In this document: in pieces, positions 4,886-52,993 of the stretch | Layout: the number at the start of each line of letters is the position of its first letter | Numbering within the stretch: the stretch's first letter is position 1 | NCBI GenBank assembly: GCA_022791835.1 | Contig: JAAVZW010000027.1 | Location: 10,112-74,111 of the forward strand | DNA from: Clostridia bacterium | GTDB taxonomy: Bacteria > Bacillota > Clostridia > TANB77 > CAG-508 | Direction: 5' to 3' | DNA length: 64,000 bases | Made by a program: the position numbers and the translations under genes | Notes under the pieces: generated by a model | Database searches by the model: none | Seen by the model: the letters and a program-made list of their open reading frames with translations, nothing else | What the model was told of the DNA's origin: nothing

Positions 4886-6322
4886 CTATTTTTTTGTTGG
4901 TATTTTGATTACTACTTCTGTACCTTCGCCTTTTTTGCTCTTGATATCTATGCTACCATCATTTTTATCTAATATTTCTTTTGCTATTGATAGTCCTAGC
5001 CCTGTGCCTCCCATTTCTCTTGTTCTTGCTTTATCTACTCTATAAAATCTATCAAATATTCTTGTTAAGTCTTCTTCTGGAATTCCTATTCCATTGTCAA
5101 TTATTTTGATGTATGCATCATTGTATACGAATCCAACATATATTTTGATGTTTCCATCTTCTTTAGTATACTTTATACTATTTGTTAATATATTTAATAT
5201 TACTCTTTCTATTCCGTCTTTGTCTGCATGTACTTGTGGAACATTTGCTGTAACAAAACATTCTACTTTTTGATGTTTTTTATCTATTTCTATTTGTACT
5301 TTGTCTTGGCATTGTTTTACCAATTCACCTAGGTCAAATTCTGCTTTTTCTTGTTTTATTTCGTTATTATCATATCTTGACAATGACAATAGGTCTGTAA
5401 CTAGTTTTGCCATTCTCCTAGCTTCTGTTGCTATTACTGTTAGAAATTTGTCTTTTGTTTCTTTGTCATATTCGTCTTCTAATAATGTGTCTGCATAGCC
5501 CATTATTGATGTTATTGGAGTTTTCAGTTCGTGTGATACATCTGCTACAAATTCTTTTCTCATTTCGCTTAGTTTTACGTGTTCTGTTATGTCTTGGATT
5601 ACTACTATTACTCCTGATGGGATATCATCTTCATTTTTTAATGGTGCAAAGTGCATATGCATGTGGTTATCGCCTATTGTTACTCTTTCTTCTGATGATG
5701 TCCAGTTTTCTAAATATATTATTTTTTCTAGATTTATATTTACATTTAATTTTTGAAATATTTTTTCAAAGTTTTCATCTTCTGGTAATAGTCTTAAAAG
5801 TCTCGTTGCTGCAGGGTTTATTAATTCTATTCTTCCTTCCATATTGAAGGCTATTATACCGTCTGTCATGTGGAGTAGAATTGTTTCTATTTGGTTTTTC
5901 TTTCTTGATACTTCGCTTAGATTTTCTTTTAGTTCTCTTGTCATTACATAGAAGGCGTTTACTAGGTCATCTACTTCATTTTGAGCTATTGGTTCTGCTA
6001 GTTCTTTAGTTTGCACTTCTTCTCCTGATGCTATTTTTTTTGCACTATTTATTAGTCTTGTAATTGGTGAAATTATTTTTTTTGTTACAAATACTCCTAC
6101 TAGAACACATATTAGGGTAAATATGAAGATTGTTATTAGTGTTATGATTTTTAACTGTCCTTGATATTTTTGTATCATTAGACTATATTCTTCTATATTT
6201 TCTGTCTGTGATGTTGTTATTGATTGTAGGCTTGTATAATTGATATAACCCATTGCACCTATTATGATTATTCCTACTATTAAGAATATTAGAATTATTT
6301 TGATTTGTATATTTCTTAGCAT
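4886..6322 (-). CDS. sensor histidine kinase (2 TM, HAMP, PAS, HisKA, HATPase_c)
   Basis: 478 aa with H-box SHELKTPITSI and C-terminal GGTGLGLSIAKEI ATPase motifs. Paired with the upstream response regulator. Confidence 0.85.
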   Translation of the reverse strand: MLRNIQIKIILIFLIVGIIIIGAMGYINYTSLQSITTSQTENIEEYSLMIQKYQGQLKIITLITIFIFTLICVLVGVFVTKKIISPITRLINSAKKIASGEEVQTKELAEPIAQNEVDDLVNAFYVMTRELKENLSEVSRKKNQIETILLHMTDGIIAFNMEGRIELINPAATRLLRLLPEDENFEKIFQKLNVNINLEKIIYLENWTSSEERVTIGDNHMHMHFAPLKNEDDIPSGVIVVIQDITEHVKLSEMRKEFVADVSHELKTPITSIMGYADTLLEDEYDKETKDKFLTVIATEARRMAKLVTDLLSLSRYDNNEIKQEKAEFDLGELVKQCQDKVQIEIDKKHQKVECFVTANVPQVHADKDGIERVILNILTNSIKYTKEDGNIKIYVGFVYNDAYIKIIDNGIGIPEEDLTRIFDRFYRVDKARTREMGGTGLGLSIAKEILDKNDGSIDIKSKKGEGTEVVIKIPTKK

Positions 6323-6395
6323 TTTTTCCCTTTCATTTTTGCTTCAAGCAAAGGGCACTTGTTTTTTAGTGCCCCTTGTTTATTTATTTTTGTTT

Positions 6396-7139
6396 TTATT
6401 CTGGCTTTGCGATATAGTATCCTACGCCTCTTTTGGTTACAAGTATTTGTGGGTTTGTAGTATCTTCTTCAATTTTTTCTCTTATTCTTCTAACTGTAAC
6501 ATCTACTGTTCTAATATCTCCAAAGTATTCATATCCCCATACTTTTTCTAGCAATAATTCTCTTGAGACTATTTGTCCTGGTTGTAATGCTAGATATTTT
6601 AGTGCTTCAAATTCTCTTACTGTTAAATCCACTTTTTCTCCTCTAACTCTTACTTCAAATCTATCTACATCTAGGCTTAAGTCTCCTACTTCTATTTTGT
6701 GATCTTCTTTCTTTTCTTTATTTTCTTGTATAACTGTTGGCACTTCTGATTTTCTAAGATTTGCTTTCACTCTTGCCATTAGTTCTCTAACGCTAAATGG
6801 TTTTGTAATATAGTCATCTGCACCAAGCTCTAGTCCTACAATTTTGTCTAGTTCTTCGTCTTTTGCTGATAGGATTAATATTGGTACATTTAATGCACTT
6901 TTAATTTTTTTGCAAGCTGTAAGCCCATCCATTTTTGGAAGCATGATGTCTAGTAAGATTAAATCTGGTTTTTTCTCTAGTGCTGTTTCTACAGCTGTTA
7001 CTCCATCATTTGCTTCTATTGTGTTATATCCTTCTTTTTTTAGATTGTATACTAGTATATCGATTATTGATTGTTCATCATCTACTATTAATATTGTTTT
7101 TTTGTCTTCATCATCAAACATAAATGCTCCGCCTTTCAT
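6396..7139 (-). CDS. OmpR-family response regulator (receiver + winged helix)
   Basis: ILIVDDEQSIIDIL...D receiver domain and C-terminal trans_reg_C. True start probably the internal ATG at 7121 (MFDDEDKK, preceded by AAAGGCGGAG). Confidence 0.85.
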   Translation of the reverse strand: MKGGAFMFDDEDKKTILIVDDEQSIIDILVYNLKKEGYNTIEANDGVTAVETALEKKPDLILLDIMLPKMDGLTACKKIKSALNVPILILSAKDEELDKIVGLELGADDYITKPFSVRELMARVKANLRKSEVPTVIQENKEKKEDHKIEVGDLSLDVDRFEVRVRGEKVDLTVREFEALKYLALQPGQIVSRELLLEKVWGYEYFGDIRTVDVTVRRIREKIEEDTTNPQILVTKRGVGYYIAKPE

Positions 7140-7693: not shown

Positions 7694-7722
7694 TTGACAA
7701 TGACGTAACGTCGTGTTATAAT
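7694..7722 (+). promoter_or_regulatory. sigma-A promoter P1 (TTGACA-17-TATAAT) with embedded palindromic operator GACGTAACGTC
   Basis: ttgaca 7694-7699, tataat 7717-7722. 5-1-5 palindrome at 7702-7712 in the spacer. Near-identical copy at 8157-8185. Confidence 0.6.
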
Positions 7723-8156: not shown

Positions 8157-8185
8157 TTGACAACGACGTAACGTCATGTTATAAT
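8157..8185 (+). promoter_or_regulatory. sigma-A promoter P2 (TTGACA-17-TATAAT), near-identical duplicate of P1 with the same GACGTAACGTC operator
   Basis: caaaaaagtattgacaaCgacgtaacgtcAtgttataat; 36 of 38 nt identical to P1. Confidence 0.6.
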
Positions 8186-8620: not shown

Positions 8621-9040
8621 ATGAGAGGTTATAATATTGATGATTATGTCGGTCAGAAATTCGGCAATCTTACTTTAATAAAAAACTTGAACAAAACAAA
8701 TAAAAACAATTCAAAAATAGCTCTTTTCAAATGCGACTGTGGAAATGAAAAAGAAGCAGCATTCACTCAAGTACTACATAGAGAAGTTACAAGCTGCGGT
8801 TGCATGAATCGAGACAAAAATTCTAATTTAAGACTTCAAAGCGTTAGAGACAAAAGAATAGAATTTACGAGAAATCATACTCAAAAAAATAATAAAACTG
8901 GCTGTAATGGTGTTACATATGCAAACGGAAAATATAGAGCTAGAATACAAGTAAATGGTTCTAGTATACATCTTGGATATTTTGACACTTTTGATAAAGC
9001 TGTCGAAGTGCGAAAAAAAGCTGAGAAAAAATATTTTTAA
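8621..9040 (+). CDS. HNH-like zinc-finger / AP2-domain protein (phage-type)
   Basis: N-terminal Cys cluster CDCGNE...SCGC. C-terminal GVTYANGKYRARIQVNGSSIHLGYFDTFDKAVEVRKKAE is a classic AP2 domain. Confidence 0.55.
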   Translation: MRGYNIDDYVGQKFGNLTLIKNLNKTNKNNSKIALFKCDCGNEKEAAFTQVLHREVTSCGCMNRDKNSNLRLQSVRDKRIEFTRNHTQKNNKTGCNGVTYANGKYRARIQVNGSSIHLGYFDTFDKAVEVRKKAEKKYF

Positions 9041-9184: not shown

Positions 9185-9234
9185 GAAGTTATATATCTAA
9201 CTTTATTTTATTATAACATAATTGGAATATTTTG

Positions 9235-9639
9235 TCAATTCTTCGTATAATATATATCTACAAATACATACATGGACGACCTATCCGCCTTAGACTCTAA
9301 ACATATCATATTGTTATTAATAAACACGCCTACTGTGCTATTGTCTGTGGGTGTTAAAGGTCTTGTAGAATTTAGCGGAATTGCAGATGTCTCTAATCTC
9401 ATTATTCCTTCTATTTTTTCGTATGTAACATTACTTAATCCCGTTTGCACAGATTTTATTACATTGTTAGGTCCACTGCCACAATCTATTCTTTTTCGAT
9501 ATATACGTTTTTTGTCAATATACTCATTTGTAGCACATTCAACGTTTGTTTCAATCTCTACTTGTTTAAGTTTTTCGTTTTCCGCCTTTAATTCTGCCAC
9601 TTTTTCTTTTAATTTCATTATTTCTTCTACAAATATCAT
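9235..9639 (-). CDS. tail-fibre-associated protein, paralogue A (coiled-coil N-terminus, conserved C-terminal domain ending FVDIYYTKN)
   Basis: 134 aa. Roughly half the positions match ORF 12502..12876, including identical ATNEYID, VDCG, NVTY, VGVFI and FVDIYYTKN blocks. The start codon overlaps the stop of an upstream (AC)18-containing leader ORF. Confidence 0.6.
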   Translation of the reverse strand: MIFVEEIMKLKEKVAELKAENEKLKQVEIETNVECATNEYIDKKRIYRKRIDCGSGPNNVIKSVQTGLSNVTYEKIEGIMRLETSAIPLNSTRPLTPTDNSTVGVFINNNMICLESKADRSSMYVFVDIYYTKN

Positions 9640-9652
9640 AGCGAGTTCACCC

Positions 9653-9716
<64 letters not shown>

Positions 9717-9765: not shown

Positions 9766-10795
9766 TTAGATAATTTCTACTTGAATTGCGTCTATTTCTT
9801 GTCCGAATATACCTGCGTATCCGTTTGTTGGATCGTTTTCATTATACTGTGTTATCCAACCTAGCCATTTGCCATTTTTTGTATGTACTCTGTACTTTGC
9901 TGTTCCCTTTGTTGCTTTTATCATTATTCCGTCTATTGCTCTGCCTTTGATGCCTGCAAAATCGTCTCCGCTTCTGTCTTTTTCTCTGTCTATAATTTCT
10001 CCTAGCCATCTTCCGTTCTTTGTATGTACTTTATAGATAAGCTTTCCTACATCGGCTTCATTTCCGCACTGTATTACCTCTAAAAGCTGTTATAGCTTGT
10101 CCGTATATTCCTGCATAGTCTTGTGTATTTAATACGTCTTGTAGCCATTTATTCGTGCATGCTTGGTATTTTACATCTATCTTTCTTTTTTCTGTAACTG
10201 TATTTTCTACTGCTTCGGTTTTGTGTTCTTCTTTTTTCTCTATGTTCAAGTATGCTAGTATTCCGTCTGCTATTCCGCTTGCTACCTTTGTTGCGTATTC
10301 TTCTGTTAAAATTAGCGGTGTATCGTGTTCGTTATCCATAAAGCCACATTCTATTAAACATGCTTTCATTTTTGTATCACGTATTATAGCAAAGTTTTGT
10401 GTCTTTACTCCTCTATTTTTCATGCCTGTTGCTTCTACTGCTTTATTATTTATAATTGTTGCTAGCCTTCCAGTTTCTCCGTTCTTACAAGCCTCATTAT
10501 ATACATAAGTTTCTATTCCAGTGCCTCCACCAGCATTATGATGTATTGATACAACAGCTTCTACATTAGCATTATTAGCATTTCTACATCTTGTGTTCAA
10601 GTCTATATCTGTATTTCCTGTGATGTCGTCTAGTCTTATAGCCTCTATGCCTTCATAGCTATTAAGTATATTGCATACTTTTGTAGCTACTCTGTTATTA
10701 ATCACCCATTCCCTTGTTTCGTTTACGTCAAATTGTTTTGCACATCTTTTTCCTGCCGTGTGTAATCCATGTCCTGCGTCTATTCCTATTTTCAT
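9766..10795 (-). CDS. endolysin: N-acetylmuramoyl-L-alanine amidase (Amidase_3) + C-terminal ChW repeats; apparent +1 frameshift near 10058
   Basis: MKIGIDAGHGLHTAGKRC... amidase_3. After the in-frame TGA at 10058 the +1 frame continues ...YKVHTKNGRWLGEII...YRVHTKNGKWLGWIT...GYAGIFGQEIDAIQVEII* (two ChW repeats). Confidence 0.7.
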
Positions 10796-10855
10796 AATAA
10801 TTCCTTCTTTCTTTTTGGTATAGTAAAAGACGTCATTGCTGACGTCTTTATATGT

Positions 10856-11404
10856 TTAATTTCCGCAACATTGTTTATATTTCTTCCCACTTCCACAAGG
10901 GCATGGGTCATTTCTTCCAATCTTTCGAGATACAGCTTGTTGCCTAGCTTTTAATTTTTGTACATAATCTGTACATTCAATAGATGGTATTCTAAAAGAA
11001 AAACATGTTTTTCCTTCATAATTAGATATTGCTAAATCCCCAAGGCCTATAACATCCATCCCTATCAATAAGTCTGAACCTTCAACTGCTGTGAATTCGG
11101 TTACTGCTACTGCTGGAATTCTTACTCTATTTGGTAATTCAATATCAACAATGTATGTATTAACATCTCTTTCTCCATTTGCAGTATTTATAGTTGCTTT
11201 TCCAGTTGGAATTAATCCACATTGTTCTACTACTTTGCTCGAAATTGCTGTGTCTGTTGCCCCTGTATCCCAAATAGCATTAAATTCTTCCTCTTTTGAT
11301 TCTTTGAATAATTCTTTATTTGCAGAAACCTTTACTTTGCTTAATAATACATTCGCCTTAGCTTGTGCTTTATAAGTAAATGCAGAAACGTGTATGTTAG
11401 CCAT
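10856..11404 (-). CDS. retropepsin-like (clan AA) aspartic protease fused to a C-terminal SEC-C zinc motif
   Basis: [12 protein letters not shown] (DTGA active-site loop), ...[12 protein letters not shown]-terminus [19 protein letters not shown] = SEC-C motif. The start overlaps the upstream gene by 8 nt. Confidence 0.6.
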
Positions 11405-11639
11405 TAAATCTTACCCTCGTATGAAATGTCTGTACTTTCTTTTTTTGTAGACATTCTTGTATGATGTATGTTCCTGCTTCTATATTTTTTGCGTTTTGAA
11501 TTGCTTCTTCTAAGGTTTTATATACCCCTATCACTTTTTCGTCTTTTATAATAACAAATTTGTTTTTGTGCTTTTTAAACAATTCTTCTTGATGTTCAGT
11601 ATAATATTTATAGTTTTTATCTATTTCCATACAAATCAC
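11397..11639 (-). CDS. small hypothetical protein, 80 aa, co-transcribed with the aspartic protease
   Basis: RBS AAGAGGTG. Own TTGACA-16-TATAAT promoter upstream. No confident domain assignment. Confidence 0.5.
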
Positions 11640-11686
11640 CTCTTTTATAGTATGAATATTTGTTAAAGAATTATTCTTATTTTACA

Positions 11687-11714
11687 ATTATATAATATTT
11701 TCTAAAAATGTCAA
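11687..11714 (-). promoter_or_regulatory. strong sigma-A promoter (TTGACA-16-TATAAT) for the moron operon 11639-10856
   Basis: Minus strand: ttgaca (11714-11709), tataat (11692-11687). Confidence 0.55.
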
Positions 11715-11779
11715 CTGTTTTGTAATATAATTGTAACATATTAGAGTAGATTTTGCAAGTTAAATTTTTCTAATGCTTA

Positions 11780-11818
11780 ACACAAGAAGATTTCTCAATT
11801 TTCTTCTTGTGTTTTATT
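11780..11818 (+). terminator. hairpin terminator (11-bp stem ACACAAGAAGA/TCTTCTTGTGT + TTTTATT)
   Basis: Perfect 11-bp inverted repeat with a 10-nt loop and T tract. Insulates the moron from the holin genes. Confidence 0.45.
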
Positions 11819-12501: not shown

Positions 12502-12876
12502 TTAATTTTTTGTATAATATATATCTACAAATATATGAAGTGCAGACCTGTCTATTTTCGTTTCAAGCATTATTTTATTGTACGATATAAATACCCCGAC
12601 GCTTGAATTATCTGTCGATTGTTGCGGTCTTGTAAAATTTATAGGAAGACCTCCATCACTTATTTGAGCTATTCCATCAATTTTTATATAAGTCACATTT
12701 CTAAGACCTGTTTCGACTTCTTTTAAAGCTGAATTTGGTGCCGCTCCGCAATCTACTCTTTTTCGATACACTCTTTTATCATCGATGTATTCATTTGTAG
12801 CATATTCAATACCTGTTTTGATTTCTATTATTTCTGTTTCTAATTCTTGTAATCTCTGCTCAATTAATTTACTCAT
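12502..12876 (-). CDS. tail-fibre-associated protein, paralogue B (see 9235-9639)
   Basis: 124 aa with the same conserved blocks and FVDIYYTKN C-terminus. Its start overlaps the stop of the fibre gene (ATGA). Confidence 0.6.
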   Translation of the reverse strand: MSKLIEQRLQELETEIIEIKTGIEYATNEYIDDKRVYRKRVDCGAAPNSALKEVETGLRNVTYIKIDGIAQISDGGLPINFTRPQQSTDNSSVGVFISYNKIMLETKIDRSALHIFVDIYYTKN

Positions 12877-34710: not shown

Positions 34711-34800
34711 TTCAAATTTTCTTTGAATTTGTGTTTATTATATTCAAATTTTTTTTGAATGTCAATGCTTTTTTTATAAAAAATTCAAAAAATTTTTGAA
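34711..34800. promoter_or_regulatory. genetic-switch region with three TTCAAA-N6/7/5-TTTGAA operator palindromes
   Basis: 34711-34728, 34744-34759, 34784-34800, between divergent cro-like and cI-like genes. Confidence 0.55.
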
Positions 34801-37466: not shown

Positions 37467-39659
37467 TTATAGCATTCGTGTGTCTAAATCATATTCTTCG
37501 TCTCTTTTTAACAATAATCCAATTTCATTGTCATACTTTAGGTCTATTATTTCTATTTCGCTAATATATGGATTTGGAGATATGTATTCTTTCATTTTTC
37601 TATACTGTGCGTAGCTTATTGTTGTTGTTAGTTTATTTATTTTTCTTTTTAGTTTGTTTTTATTCTTGTACGTTATTTCTTCTTTATATGCTTGAAATAA
37701 GTCTATATTTTGATCATAGATTGTTTTTGGTATTACTGTTACATTATCTATGTTTCTTAGTAACTTTTGTGCTTCTGTTTTGTTTGTGTCATAATCTACT
37801 ATATTATCTAGAAATTCCATACCCGTTTTGAAAGTTTTTATAAATCTCGTGTTTTCTAGTGTTTCTTTTGAATATAATTTATCTACTAGTTTTATTTTAT
37901 CTGTTTCTTCTAGTATTTTGTTGTTGAATGGTAATAGTAGTTCTATACTTTTTTGATTTATTTCTTCATCATATATATGTCCTATTCCTGTTGCTTCTTT
38001 TGTATAAATGTATACATTGGATTCTTCTTTTTTATATTCTCTGTTTCTGTAGCATCTTCCCATTCTTTGAAAAATGCTGTCTAACGTTGACATTTCTGTG
38101 TATAGGTAGTCAAAGTCTATGTCTAACGAGGCTTCTACTATTTGTGTTGTTATCCATATACCTCTTTTTTCTTGATTTTTTGAGAATTCTTTTATCTTTT
38201 CTTCTTTTTGATTTCTGTCTTTTCCTATAAATCTAGAATGTAATAGTTTTACATTGTCTGCTTGTTTTTCTTTTAGTTCTGAATATAACTCTATTGCTTT
38301 ATTTACAGTATTACATATGACTAATACTTTATTATTTTTGCTTTTTTCTTTTATTTGATCTATTTCTTCTTTTATGTTTTTTTCTTTTATTTGGATTTTA
38401 TGCCTTTGTACGTTTTTTATAAATTCATTGTATTTAAATTGTATTCCCATTTTTTCTAGTTCTTCTTTATAAATTCTTGGTAATGTGGCTGTCATTACCA
38501 TAAATTTTCCACCTAACTTATGTATCATTTGTAAGCCTTTTAGTATAACTGCTACTATTTCTGGAGAGTATGCTTGTATTTCGTCTATAATTATTTTCGA
38601 ATAACTAAGGGTTGCATATATTTTTTCATAGCCTTTATACTTAAAAACGAATGGGAATATTTGATCTATTGTGCATGTTGTTATCTTTTCTGATAGGTTT
38701 CTTGATTGTTCATATATTTGTAGTCCTAAGGATAGTTCATCTTTTTCTTCTAGGTAATCTAATGCTGTTCCATGTAATAATCCTACATGTTCATAATTCA
38801 TACCCTCTCGTATTCTGTCAAATATTGCGTTTATGCTTATTCTTATTGGTAATGTGAAAAAAGTTTTGCTATTTTTACTCCATAATAGGGCTGATTCTGT
38901 TTTTCCTATTCCAGTCGAACCTATGACTAATAAATTATTATCTTGATTTTGTTTACTGAATTCTTGTATGTCTCTTAGCTGATATCCTTTGCTTTTTATT
39001 TGGTTTCCTACTACCTCTCCTATTTCTTCATTTGTTTCGTCCTCTACCTTGATATTCGCAGAGCTACTATGGTCTAATCTATGTAATAATCCTTTGAGCA
39101 GGCAATATTCTTCATATTGCCTGTCCTTTTTTGATATTCGGTCTCTTTTTCCGCTTCCTATATACATTAGATACATTGAATTAGGATGTTTTTCGATTTC
39201 TATACCTATTTCTTTCTCTATTTGTTCTGCTTGTGGAAGTATGTCTGTTTTGATTATTTCTTCTACTAATTTACTATCTACTGGCACTTTTTCTCTTTCA
39301 TGGTGATAGAAAATAACTTGATATATTAATCTCTTTTCTTCTTTACTTAAATTAAATTTTTGTGTTGGTATGAAAAGAGGAGAAAGTTCTTCATGTCTAG
39401 CTATTTCATAGCTAAATTTAGTGGATAAGGTTTCTTTTCCTAATTTTTTTCTTATTTCGTTTTGAAAAGGTGTGTATACTTTTCCTATGTCATGGTATGT
39501 ACATATTATTTTTAATAAGTCCCAAAATCTTTCTTTTTCTATGTTTTTTCCTTTTAAAATTTCTTCGCCATATGTGTTTTTTAGTATTTCTAAGTTTTTT
39601 AATAATGCTTTTGTATGTTCTTCTACTGTTTGCTCAGGTTTAGATTTTGCATAATACAT
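37467..39659 (-). CDS. cas3: Cas3 (HD nuclease + DExH helicase)
   Basis: HD motif ...ICTYHDIGKV..., Walker A GSTGIGKTES, helicase motifs. Start placed at ATG 39659 (RBS AGGAG); the track ORF extends to 39698 and would overlap cas5. Confidence 0.85.
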   Translation of the reverse strand: MYYAKSKPEQTVEEHTKALLKNLEILKNTYGEEILKGKNIEKERFWDLLKIICTYHDIGKVYTPFQNEIRKKLGKETLSTKFSYEIARHEELSPLFIPTQKFNLSKEEKRLIYQVIFYHHEREKVPVDSKLVEEIIKTDILPQAEQIEKEIGIEIEKHPNSMYLMYIGSGKRDRISKKDRQYEEYCLLKGLLHRLDHSSSANIKVEDETNEEIGEVVGNQIKSKGYQLRDIQEFSKQNQDNNLLVIGSTGIGKTESALLWSKNSKTFFTLPIRISINAIFDRIREGMNYEHVGLLHGTALDYLEEKDELSLGLQIYEQSRNLSEKITTCTIDQIFPFVFKYKGYEKIYATLSYSKIIIDEIQAYSPEIVAVILKGLQMIHKLGGKFMVMTATLPRIYKEELEKMGIQFKYNEFIKNVQRHKIQIKEKNIKEEIDQIKEKSKNNKVLVICNTVNKAIELYSELKEKQADNVKLLHSRFIGKDRNQKEEKIKEFSKNQEKRGIWITTQIVEASLDIDFDYLYTEMSTLDSIFQRMGRCYRNREYKKEESNVYIYTKEATGIGHIYDEEINQKSIELLLPFNNKILEETDKIKLVDKLYSKETLENTRFIKTFKTGMEFLDNIVDYDTNKTEAQKLLRNIDNVTVIPKTIYDQNIDLFQAYKEEITYKNKNKLKRKINKLTTTISYAQYRKMKEYISPNPYISEIEIIDLKYDNEIGLLLKRDEEYDLDTRML

Positions 39660-39660
39660 T

Positions 39661-40316
39661 TTAATACTCCTTTTCATAGAAAAATACGTAGTCTCCATCT
39701 TGGTCTCTCAACACTTGCTCTATTCCTTGGTTTGTATGTCTTTCTATATATTTCACATTGACTTTATCCCATTTTCTGAGGTTATTTATTATTTGATATT
39801 TAGTGTTTAATCTATATTGTATTCCACTAATTTCATTGCTCAAATGCTCTGGTACATATGCGTTGTACTCGTTTATCATTCCTCCTGATAATTCAGGTTT
39901 TTGAATGATTTTTACCTCATCTACTCTTACCATATCTTCGTTTCTTCCTAGTGTAAAAGTTTCTTTTCCTGTTACGATGTTTTCATATATTTTTTCTATT
40001 ATCTCATCTTCTGCTTGTACGTGGATAATAAGTTCTATATTTAGTAATTGGTGTACATTTCTTGGCATTGATGTCACTTGGTCTTTTCCTTTAAACATTC
40101 TTAAGTTTTGATAGTTAGAAAATATACTTTCATATTTGCCTTGTATGGAGATATTCATTTTAAAATATTCTCCGAAATTTAGCTCCTAGAATTTTGTGAA
40201 GCATTCCTATTACTGTTGAATATGGTGGCAAAGGATAGGTTTCTGCTACTTTGAAGGCAAATGGCTTTTTGTAGCAGGCTGTTTCTTGAAATAGTTTCAT
40301 TTTTAAATATTTCATT
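39661..40316 (-). CDS. cas5: Cas5 (type I-B), apparent 1-nt frameshift near 40172
   Basis: N-terminal 57 aa MKYLKMKLFQETACYKKPFAFKVAETYPLPPYSTVIGMLHKILGAKF in one frame, the rest (track ORF 39661..40158) in another. One extra G in ...TTTCGG(G)AGAA restores AKFRGEYFKMNISIQGK. Confidence 0.7.
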
Positions 40317-52908: not shown

Positions 52909-52993
52909 TTTTCCTCCTATAATAGTCTTTTTTCATTATACTATCTATATAATATTTTTGTCAATTGTAATCTCATATATCACTTATATCAAA

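Follow-up and report, generated by a model that had tools for sequence, protein, structure and literature searches.

The window analysed here, a 64,000-nucleotide stretch of a Clostridia bacterium contig (JAAVZW010000027.1), carries a prophage in which the list of open reading frames and scans for local signals delineate, on the minus strand from 11714 to 10826, a promoter, a gene for a small DUF5678 protein, an overlapping gene for a retropepsin-like aspartic protease, and a hairpin (Table 1). This cassette is flanked on one side by holin-like genes and on the other by an Amidase_3 endolysin gene, and both of its open reading frames are present on the minus strand, in keeping with the initial annotation of the locus, which had described a two-gene, promoter-equipped unit between holin and endolysin. 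The prophage is bracketed by a host two-component system at 4886-7139 and by Cas3 at 37467-39698, which places the cassette some 2-3 kb from a prophage end. At least five other metagenomic samples show this arrangement too, and a Megablast comparison of the region with phage records gave no match. The Cas3 gene, which encodes an HD-helicase on the minus strand, is near the likely far end of the prophage, and an HNH-endonuclease-like gene (8621-9040, plus strand; phrog_374, E 1.2e-28) is situated in the interval that separates the prophage late genes from the host two-component system. The stretch from 4886 to 7139 was itself considered as a defence island and rejected, its weak PADLOC matches being explained by an ordinary response regulator and histidine kinase.

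Table 1. Features of the cassette and of the lysis genes that flank it, in window coordinates.
Feature	Coordinates	Strand	Basis or remarks
XhlA/'hemolysin'-like protein, phrog_937	12483-12148	-	PHROG match
Holin-like 101-aa protein, phrog_15303 (unknown function)	12148-11843	-	hydrophobic N-terminal stretch in translation
Upstream hairpin	11779-11813	-	follows the holin-like gene; stem of 12 bp, loop of 11 nt, no U-tract
Sigma-70 consensus promoter	11687-11714	-	-35 TTGACA 11714-11709, 16-nt spacer, -10 TATAAT 11692-11687
Shine-Dalgarno sequence of gene 1, AGAGGTGA	11636-11643	-	5 nt before ATG 11630; read from sequence
Gene 1, DUF5678 small protein	11397-11630	-	77 aa from ATG
Gene 2, retropepsin-like aspartic protease	10856-11404	-	182 aa
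Codons for putative catalytic D46-T47-G48	11261-11269	-	read from sequence and translation
SEC-C / SecA-type predicted metal-binding domain	10859-10915	-	residues 164-182; PF02810
Downstream terminator-like hairpin	10826-10849	-	AAAGACGUCA-gcaa-UGACGUCUUU, then UACUAU; directly after gene 2
Amidase_3 endolysin	10795-10058	-	domain match

At the level of sequence, the hexamers of the cassette promoter match the sigma-70 consensus at 12 of 12 positions, as had been proposed, and since the window holds six perfect TTGACA/TATAAT promoters where 0.15 would be expected from shuffled sequence, such sites are best regarded as real signals here. The other five, with spacers of 16-18 nt, are found at 7694-7722 and 8157-8185 on the plus strand and at 9210-9238, 34737-34765 and 52935-52964 on the minus strand; those at 7694 and 8157 are near-identical, and both have a palindromic GACGTAACGTC spacer that could be an operator. 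Gene 1 had been assigned 80 amino acids, the length of the longest open reading frame, which begins at a GTG at 11639. It most likely encodes 77 instead, starting at the ATG, because this codon is preceded at a distance of 5 nt by the Shine-Dalgarno sequence and because an identical protein annotated by NCBI (P0121) is 77 amino acids long. The 8-nt overlap between the two genes (ATGGCTAA) is exactly as reported, with gene 2 starting at 11404 and gene 1 ending at 11397, and it leads us to infer that the two are probably co-translated.

Hairpins are found on either side of the pair. The upstream one had been described as an insulating terminator, and a stable hairpin does exist there (minimum free energy of the surrounding 75 nt -16.5 kcal/mol, z -3.0 relative to shuffles), but to call it a terminator was an overstatement: as it has no U-tract, it is not a canonical intrinsic terminator. 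It was not called by the terminator scan, and the block shared with other loci does not reach it. The downstream hairpin, which the initial annotation did not include, looks more terminator-like. It folds with -13.2 kcal/mol (z -4.8), which none of 200 shuffles equalled, and was picked up by the terminator scan, on the plus strand, its stem being palindromic; its U-tract is short and lies partly within the stem, and the endolysin gene beyond it must still be transcribed. That gene, separated from the cassette by the hairpin, starts 30 nt past it, and no promoter of its own was found in the 60 nt that follow the cassette. It may therefore also be served by the cassette promoter or by read-through, which blurs the picture of an insulated moron.

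The surroundings of the lysis genes have some further features of their own. The C-terminal repeat of the endolysin has the form HTKNGxWLG...(Y/F)AGIxGxxIDxI, and past the stop codon at 10058 two more copies of it continue in a different frame as far as 9766 (9766-10100, minus strand), so that the cell-wall-binding domain looks frameshifted, reflecting either a pseudogenised tail or an error of sequencing or assembly. A (TG)19 microsatellite (9677-9714), a tract that could be slippage-prone, occupies the intergenic space between the end of the endolysin region and a gene for a 134-aa protein (9639-9235). The latter gene, located after the endolysin near the prophage end, is a paralogue of one for a 124-aa protein (12502-12876) that stands just before the lysis genes among unannotated late genes; both are on the minus strand, and their products have a common ATNEYID-KR-YRKR-DCG core and a VDIYYTKN C-terminus, with no PHROG match for either.

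The protein encoded by gene 1 matches the Pfam family DUF5678 (PF18929) with 34.9 bits against a cutoff of 23.2 (E 1.4e-8), and structural matches of its model in BFVD are to DUF5678 proteins. Its conserved features are a GT(F/Y)(L/I)IQxC core and a C-terminal QTFH(S/T)RVxF tail; an antitoxin DNA-binding domain of the HTH, RHH, AbrB or Phd type is not recognisable in it. A profile search with this protein, which we refer to as the partner of the protease, returned 2,538 clusters at 50% identity, nearly all of them stand-alone proteins of ~80 aa. Among the best 150 matches there are tandem DUF5678 duplications and unrelated N-terminal extensions, and there is no fusion of partner and protease. 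A 288-aa protein that was considered as such a fusion (P0061, at 6001-6867 of locus L090) was rejected, as it proved instead to contain an exact internal duplication of ~100 residues of the N-terminal half of the protease, which reflects either a genuine tandem duplication or a fault in the assembly. Proteins of the DUF5678 fold also occur in Pandoraviruses, giant viruses of amoebae (A0A2U7UG46, S4VV29 and A0A2U7UD66, matched by the gene 1 model in BFVD with Foldseek E values of 3e-4 to 1e-3).

The product of gene 2 can be divided into an N-terminal beta extension (residues 1-38), the protease core (39-140), a helix (147-154) and a SEC-C tail (164-182). Searches with Pfam models bore out the retropepsin-like and SEC-C domain calls that had been made for it: PF13975 and PF13650 match residues 39-119 with 42.2 bits (cutoff 28.2) and 40.4 bits (cutoff 24.3), respectively, and PF02810 matches the tail with 42.2 bits (cutoff 20.4). 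The protein is also assigned to the retropepsin fold on structural grounds, at 11-24% identity to its structural matches. The active-site motif WDTGATD can be read directly in the translation, W45-D46-T47-G48-A49 being invariant and LIGMD (113-117) conserved in two alignments (A1 and A4), and D[TS]G[AS] is kept in 119 of the 120 best protease homologues; the active site is apparently intact. Inspection of the sequence revealed no signal peptide or transmembrane segment, and the protease is predicted to be soluble and cytoplasmic.

The tail is nearly that of a SecA protein, with 20 of 21 residues identical to the C-terminal zinc domain of Escherichia coli SecA (PDB 1sx0), and its CxCx8C[CH] motif also matches the C-terminal peptide of YchJ (9l6b). 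The SecA metal-binding domain binds SecB and ribosomes, a property known for SecA and YecA (bioRxiv 10.1101/613315). Nearly all of the 120 best homologues of the protease have a SEC-C tail. In a set of 68 representative proteases (67 from viral, metagenomic or genomic loci and that of the window), SEC-C is present in 30. Of the other 38, in which the motif is absent or incomplete, 32 have a polybasic tail at this end, with a net charge of +4 to +10 over the last 20 residues and often resembling HGKGKxKRRK. That SEC-C can be swapped for plain basic stretches suggests that the tail serves to tether the protease to an anionic partner, for instance the ribosome, RNA or a membrane, rather than to bind SecB specifically. 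SEC-C tails are also found at the C-termini of the PADLOC models PDC-S12 and CBASS E2, which makes them a recurrent appendage of defence-associated proteins.

Database homologues of the protease number 1,422 at E <=1e-5, and relatives of it are encoded by 204 IMG/VR viral contigs; for the latter, an alignment trimmed of SEC-C was used, as the full-length query had matched mostly unrelated SEC-C proteins. A DUF5678-like open reading frame is directly upstream and on the same strand in 90 of the 91 protease loci considered (viral contigs, metagenomic and genomic contigs, and Leptospira phage LE1), and the lone unpaired locus is a 697-bp contig that is cut off upstream. The spacing of the two genes across loci is typically between about -11 and +26 nt, which is to say that they overlap by 1-11 nt or are less than 30 nt apart. 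When the question was asked from the side of the partner, three of three independent look-ups found the protease directly downstream, and judged by these gene neighbourhoods the pairing looks obligate. At 50% of 68 loci, the 200 nt upstream of the pair contain a promoter-like site that matches the consensus at 10 or more of 12 positions, compared with 6.5% of control windows.

The cassette also appears to have moved as a whole. In blastn comparisons, nucleotide homology between the window and five other loci (L082, L191, L094, L095 and L084), which sit in unrelated contexts, extends from 11703-11738 to 10848-10868 of the window. It thus spans the cassette from promoter to stop codon, so that the transferable unit consists of the promoter and two genes, ~0.87 kb in all; the downstream hairpin is just outside the conserved block, and the lysis genes are excluded from it. 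The initial annotation had viewed the pair as a moron in the lysis region, and as an autonomous, promoter-equipped insertion it has stood up well, the boundaries of homology agreeing almost exactly with the extent that had been claimed. The copy in L191, whose protease is 78% identical, follows an unrelated M15 lysin and comes just before an integrase and an S24 repressor. In the closest relatives of the endolysin (L174 and L175, 76% and 72% identical), the holin abuts the endolysin with gaps of 57 and 4 nt and no insert; the holins of these two loci are not homologous to that of the window, and so the comparison is not cleanly isogenic. No relatives of the 101-aa holin-like protein were found that might have provided an isogenic empty site. 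Taken together, the sequence comparisons indicate that the cassette is a self-contained, horizontally mobile unit of promoter, small-protein gene and protease gene.

The places in which other copies are found are varied. They include positions beside an LPD38 giant protein, directly downstream of secA, in an integrase/Mob/NERD island adjoining tsaE and tsaD, beside HigBA and a transposase, after a prophage glucosaminidase and before a methyltransferase/restriction gene, at the edge of an ICE beside ParB_N and ArdA (on the strand opposite to these two genes), next to a Phd/YefM gene, and among housekeeping genes in Bacteroides. A Pfam tally of ~250 flanking genes yielded tape-measure proteins, HTH and S24 repressors, amidases, integrases and methyltransferases, none of which predominates. 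The initial annotation had proposed a survey of the neighbourhoods for defence islands or prophages; phages and other mobile elements are the home of the cassette, and known defence genes are not dominant among the flanking genes tallied. The cassette tends to lie close to the termini of viral contigs and at the margins of other mobile elements, the pair being in the terminal 10% of the contig at 27 of 80 viral loci when 16 would be expected (p = 0.003; the loci are not all independent). Among the 72,556 plasmids of PLSDB, tblastn found no match to the protease core, and absence from plasmids is unusual for a classical addiction module. It was also observed that two elements with the cassette, one of the integrase/Mob_Pre type (L087, 10004-12555) and one of the ArdA/ParB_N ICE type (L178-L181, 7049-8862), both adjoin host tsaE-tsaD, which may be an integration hotspot that they share.

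How does the cassette relate to systems that are already known? The only PADLOC match for the protease core is to PDC-M08B, and it is weak for the window protein (E 1.5e-3, 16.6 bits); four of five short relatives of the protease match the same model with E values between 3.6e-6 and 4e-3 and nearly full coverage of the profile. PADLOC PDC entries are unvalidated candidates that were proposed from genomic association. PDC-M08 (PADLOC-DB 2.0) is, like the cassette, a two-gene system, composed of a small A component (a profile of 86 positions, the size of the partner) and a retropepsin-like B component (~127 positions). The window protease is ~55 aa longer than PDC-M08B and has in addition the N-terminal beta extension and the SEC-C tail, gene 1 has no match to PDC-M08A, and only three of the 53 partner relatives that were scanned match PDC-M08A, weakly (E ~0.02-0.03). 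In view of such weak matches, the cassette looks like a divergent relative of this unvalidated candidate pair and not a member of it. In a literature search, we found no published function or mechanism for PDC-M08, and no relevant paper on DUF5678 in this setting, on PDC-M08, on a bacterial retropepsin in phage defence or in a toxin-antitoxin system, or on an aspartic protease with SEC-C in a phage. The domain combination had been put forward as one without a described function, and the search turned up no paper on it.

Several better-characterised proteins invite comparison. Among retropepsins, APRc of Rickettsia is embedded in the membrane, and those of retroviruses are released from polyproteins by cleavage. 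The window protease differs from APRc (ApRick, PDB 5c9b) and from the retroviral and Ddi1 enzymes in being stand-alone and, by prediction, soluble, in having a small partner gene and a zinc or polybasic tail, and in residing on phages and ICEs. Unlike in SecA, YecA (AscA) and YchJ, the SEC-C domain is joined here to a protease rather than to a translocase or chaperone, and it is interchangeable with polybasic tails among the relatives of the protease. Lit, encoded by the e14 prophage of E. coli, is a protease that cleaves EF-Tu upon T4 infection; it is a zinc metalloprotease and has no partner gene. The analogy with Lit is therefore functional only, in that both are prophage-borne proteases with a role, proposed in the case of the cassette, in shutting down translation during superinfection, and no relation of sequence or fold is to be expected. 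As for morons, the term as defined by Hendrix and colleagues denotes an architecture and not a function. The cassette resembles them in having its own predicted promoter and a downstream hairpin and in being inserted between genes that are adjacent in related phages, but it is also found outside phages. With type II toxin-antitoxin systems it has in common a small upstream gene, an overlap, strict pairing, a predicted promoter of its own and a home on mobile elements, whereas it differs from them in lacking a recognisable antitoxin DNA-binding domain and any tblastn match in PLSDB.

It is tempting to speculate that the cassette is a lysogen-expressed protease module of a toxin-antitoxin-like or abortive-infection type, in which the partner is a regulator and the tail a tether to the ribosome or another anionic structure; we favour this reading tentatively, giving it a little less than an even chance. 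According to such a scheme, the cassette, which has inserted into a Clostridia prophage between holin-like genes and endolysin, would be transcribed in the lysogen by the RNA polymerase of the host. The DUF5678 protein would bind the protease, for which its conserved C-terminal QTFHSRVxF strand may be responsible, and would keep it inactive or set its specificity, much as an antitoxin or a sensor might, while the basic or zinc tail would tether the protease to ribosomes or to some other anionic partner. Phage infection, loss of the element or some similar trigger would cause the protease to cleave a host or phage protein, and growth would stop, to the benefit of the prophage and its host. An anti-phage or lysogen-benefit role is plausible, its only database support being the weak similarity to an unvalidated PADLOC candidate.

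The main rival to the toxin-antitoxin or abortive-infection reading is that the protease acts in anti-defence or host takeover, destroying a host immunity or stress-response protein upon entry or induction, with the small protein as its chaperone or specificity factor. The almost exclusive occurrence of the cassette on mobile elements, the 204 IMG/VR contigs among them, would suit such a role, as would the ICE-edge copy that adjoins the anti-restriction gene ardA and a ParB_N gene and the frequency of methyltransferases among the neighbours. On the other hand, that ICE copy is on the opposite strand to ArdA and ParB_N, some copies are among ordinary chromosomal genes, and the cassette has its own constitutive-type sigma-70 promoter and a location at prophage ends, the usual place of lysogen-expressed genes. 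We consider anti-defence unlikely. A purely selfish addiction module, which would stabilise the prophage or ICE while doing nothing against other phages, is in our estimation quite unlikely. The two genes are small, they overlap or nearly abut, are strictly paired, have a predicted promoter of their own and are found on integrative elements, with HigBA and a Phd/YefM gene among their neighbours, much as one would expect of such a module, yet the lack of any match to PLSDB plasmids speaks against it, as does a partner without a recognisable antitoxin DNA-binding domain.

The tail prompts another thought, namely that the protease is a ribosome- or Sec-associated quality-control enzyme, comparable to YecA/AscA and YchJ, which merely rides on mobile elements. 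It is, after all, a SecA-type metal-binding domain, which in SecA binds ribosomes and SecB (10.1101/613315), and one copy is directly downstream of secA. Such an enzyme would not be expected to show the patchy, mobile-element-associated distribution seen here, to be without the SEC-C motif in the majority of representative copies from viruses and metagenomes, or to be accompanied nearly always by the partner gene (90 of 91 loci) and at half of 68 loci by a promoter-like site, and we regard this explanation as very doubtful. Finally, the position of the window cassette between holin-like genes and endolysin, together with viral copies that neighbour amidases or lysins, might suggest that the protease processes the holin, antiholin or endolysin of this phage, and a regulator of lysis timing had in fact been among the initial proposals. 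This idea is disfavoured and seems highly improbable: the closest endolysin relatives, L174 and L175, lack the pair, the 78%-identical copy follows an unrelated lysin, and many copies have no lysis genes nearby, being located instead beside SecA, at an ICE edge, or next to HigBA, integrases or tail genes. In addition, the conserved block excludes the lysis genes, and inspection of the protease revealed neither a signal peptide nor a transmembrane segment. The pair did not turn out to be part of a conserved lysis-regulation module in related phages.

Bacterial immunity is increasingly seen to employ proteases as effectors, and we know of no characterised system with a protease of the retropepsin type. 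The individual domains are already catalogued, as is the PADLOC candidate PDC-M08; the conserved cassette, its mobility with promoter included, the alternation of tail types and the breadth of its distribution appear to be undescribed so far. The cassette is compact (~0.87 kb) and widespread, and it comes with directly testable hypotheses, that the partner is an inhibitor, that D46 is catalytic and that the tail is a tether. A more far-reaching possibility, which we would advance only speculatively and hold to be rather doubtful, is that the pair constitutes a new class among the immune or addiction effectors of prokaryotes, namely an aspartic protease tethered to the ribosome, restrained by a small partner and spread across phyla on prophages and ICEs. 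It would be the first retroviral-type aspartic protease in the conflict between phage and bacterium and a prokaryotic relative of the retrovirus/Ddi1 protease fold. Should the protease act on the ribosome or on nascent chains, it would constitute a new way of shutting down translation. If true, this would also provide a function for DUF5678 and for a large set of proteins that are currently annotated as 'predicted aspartyl protease'.
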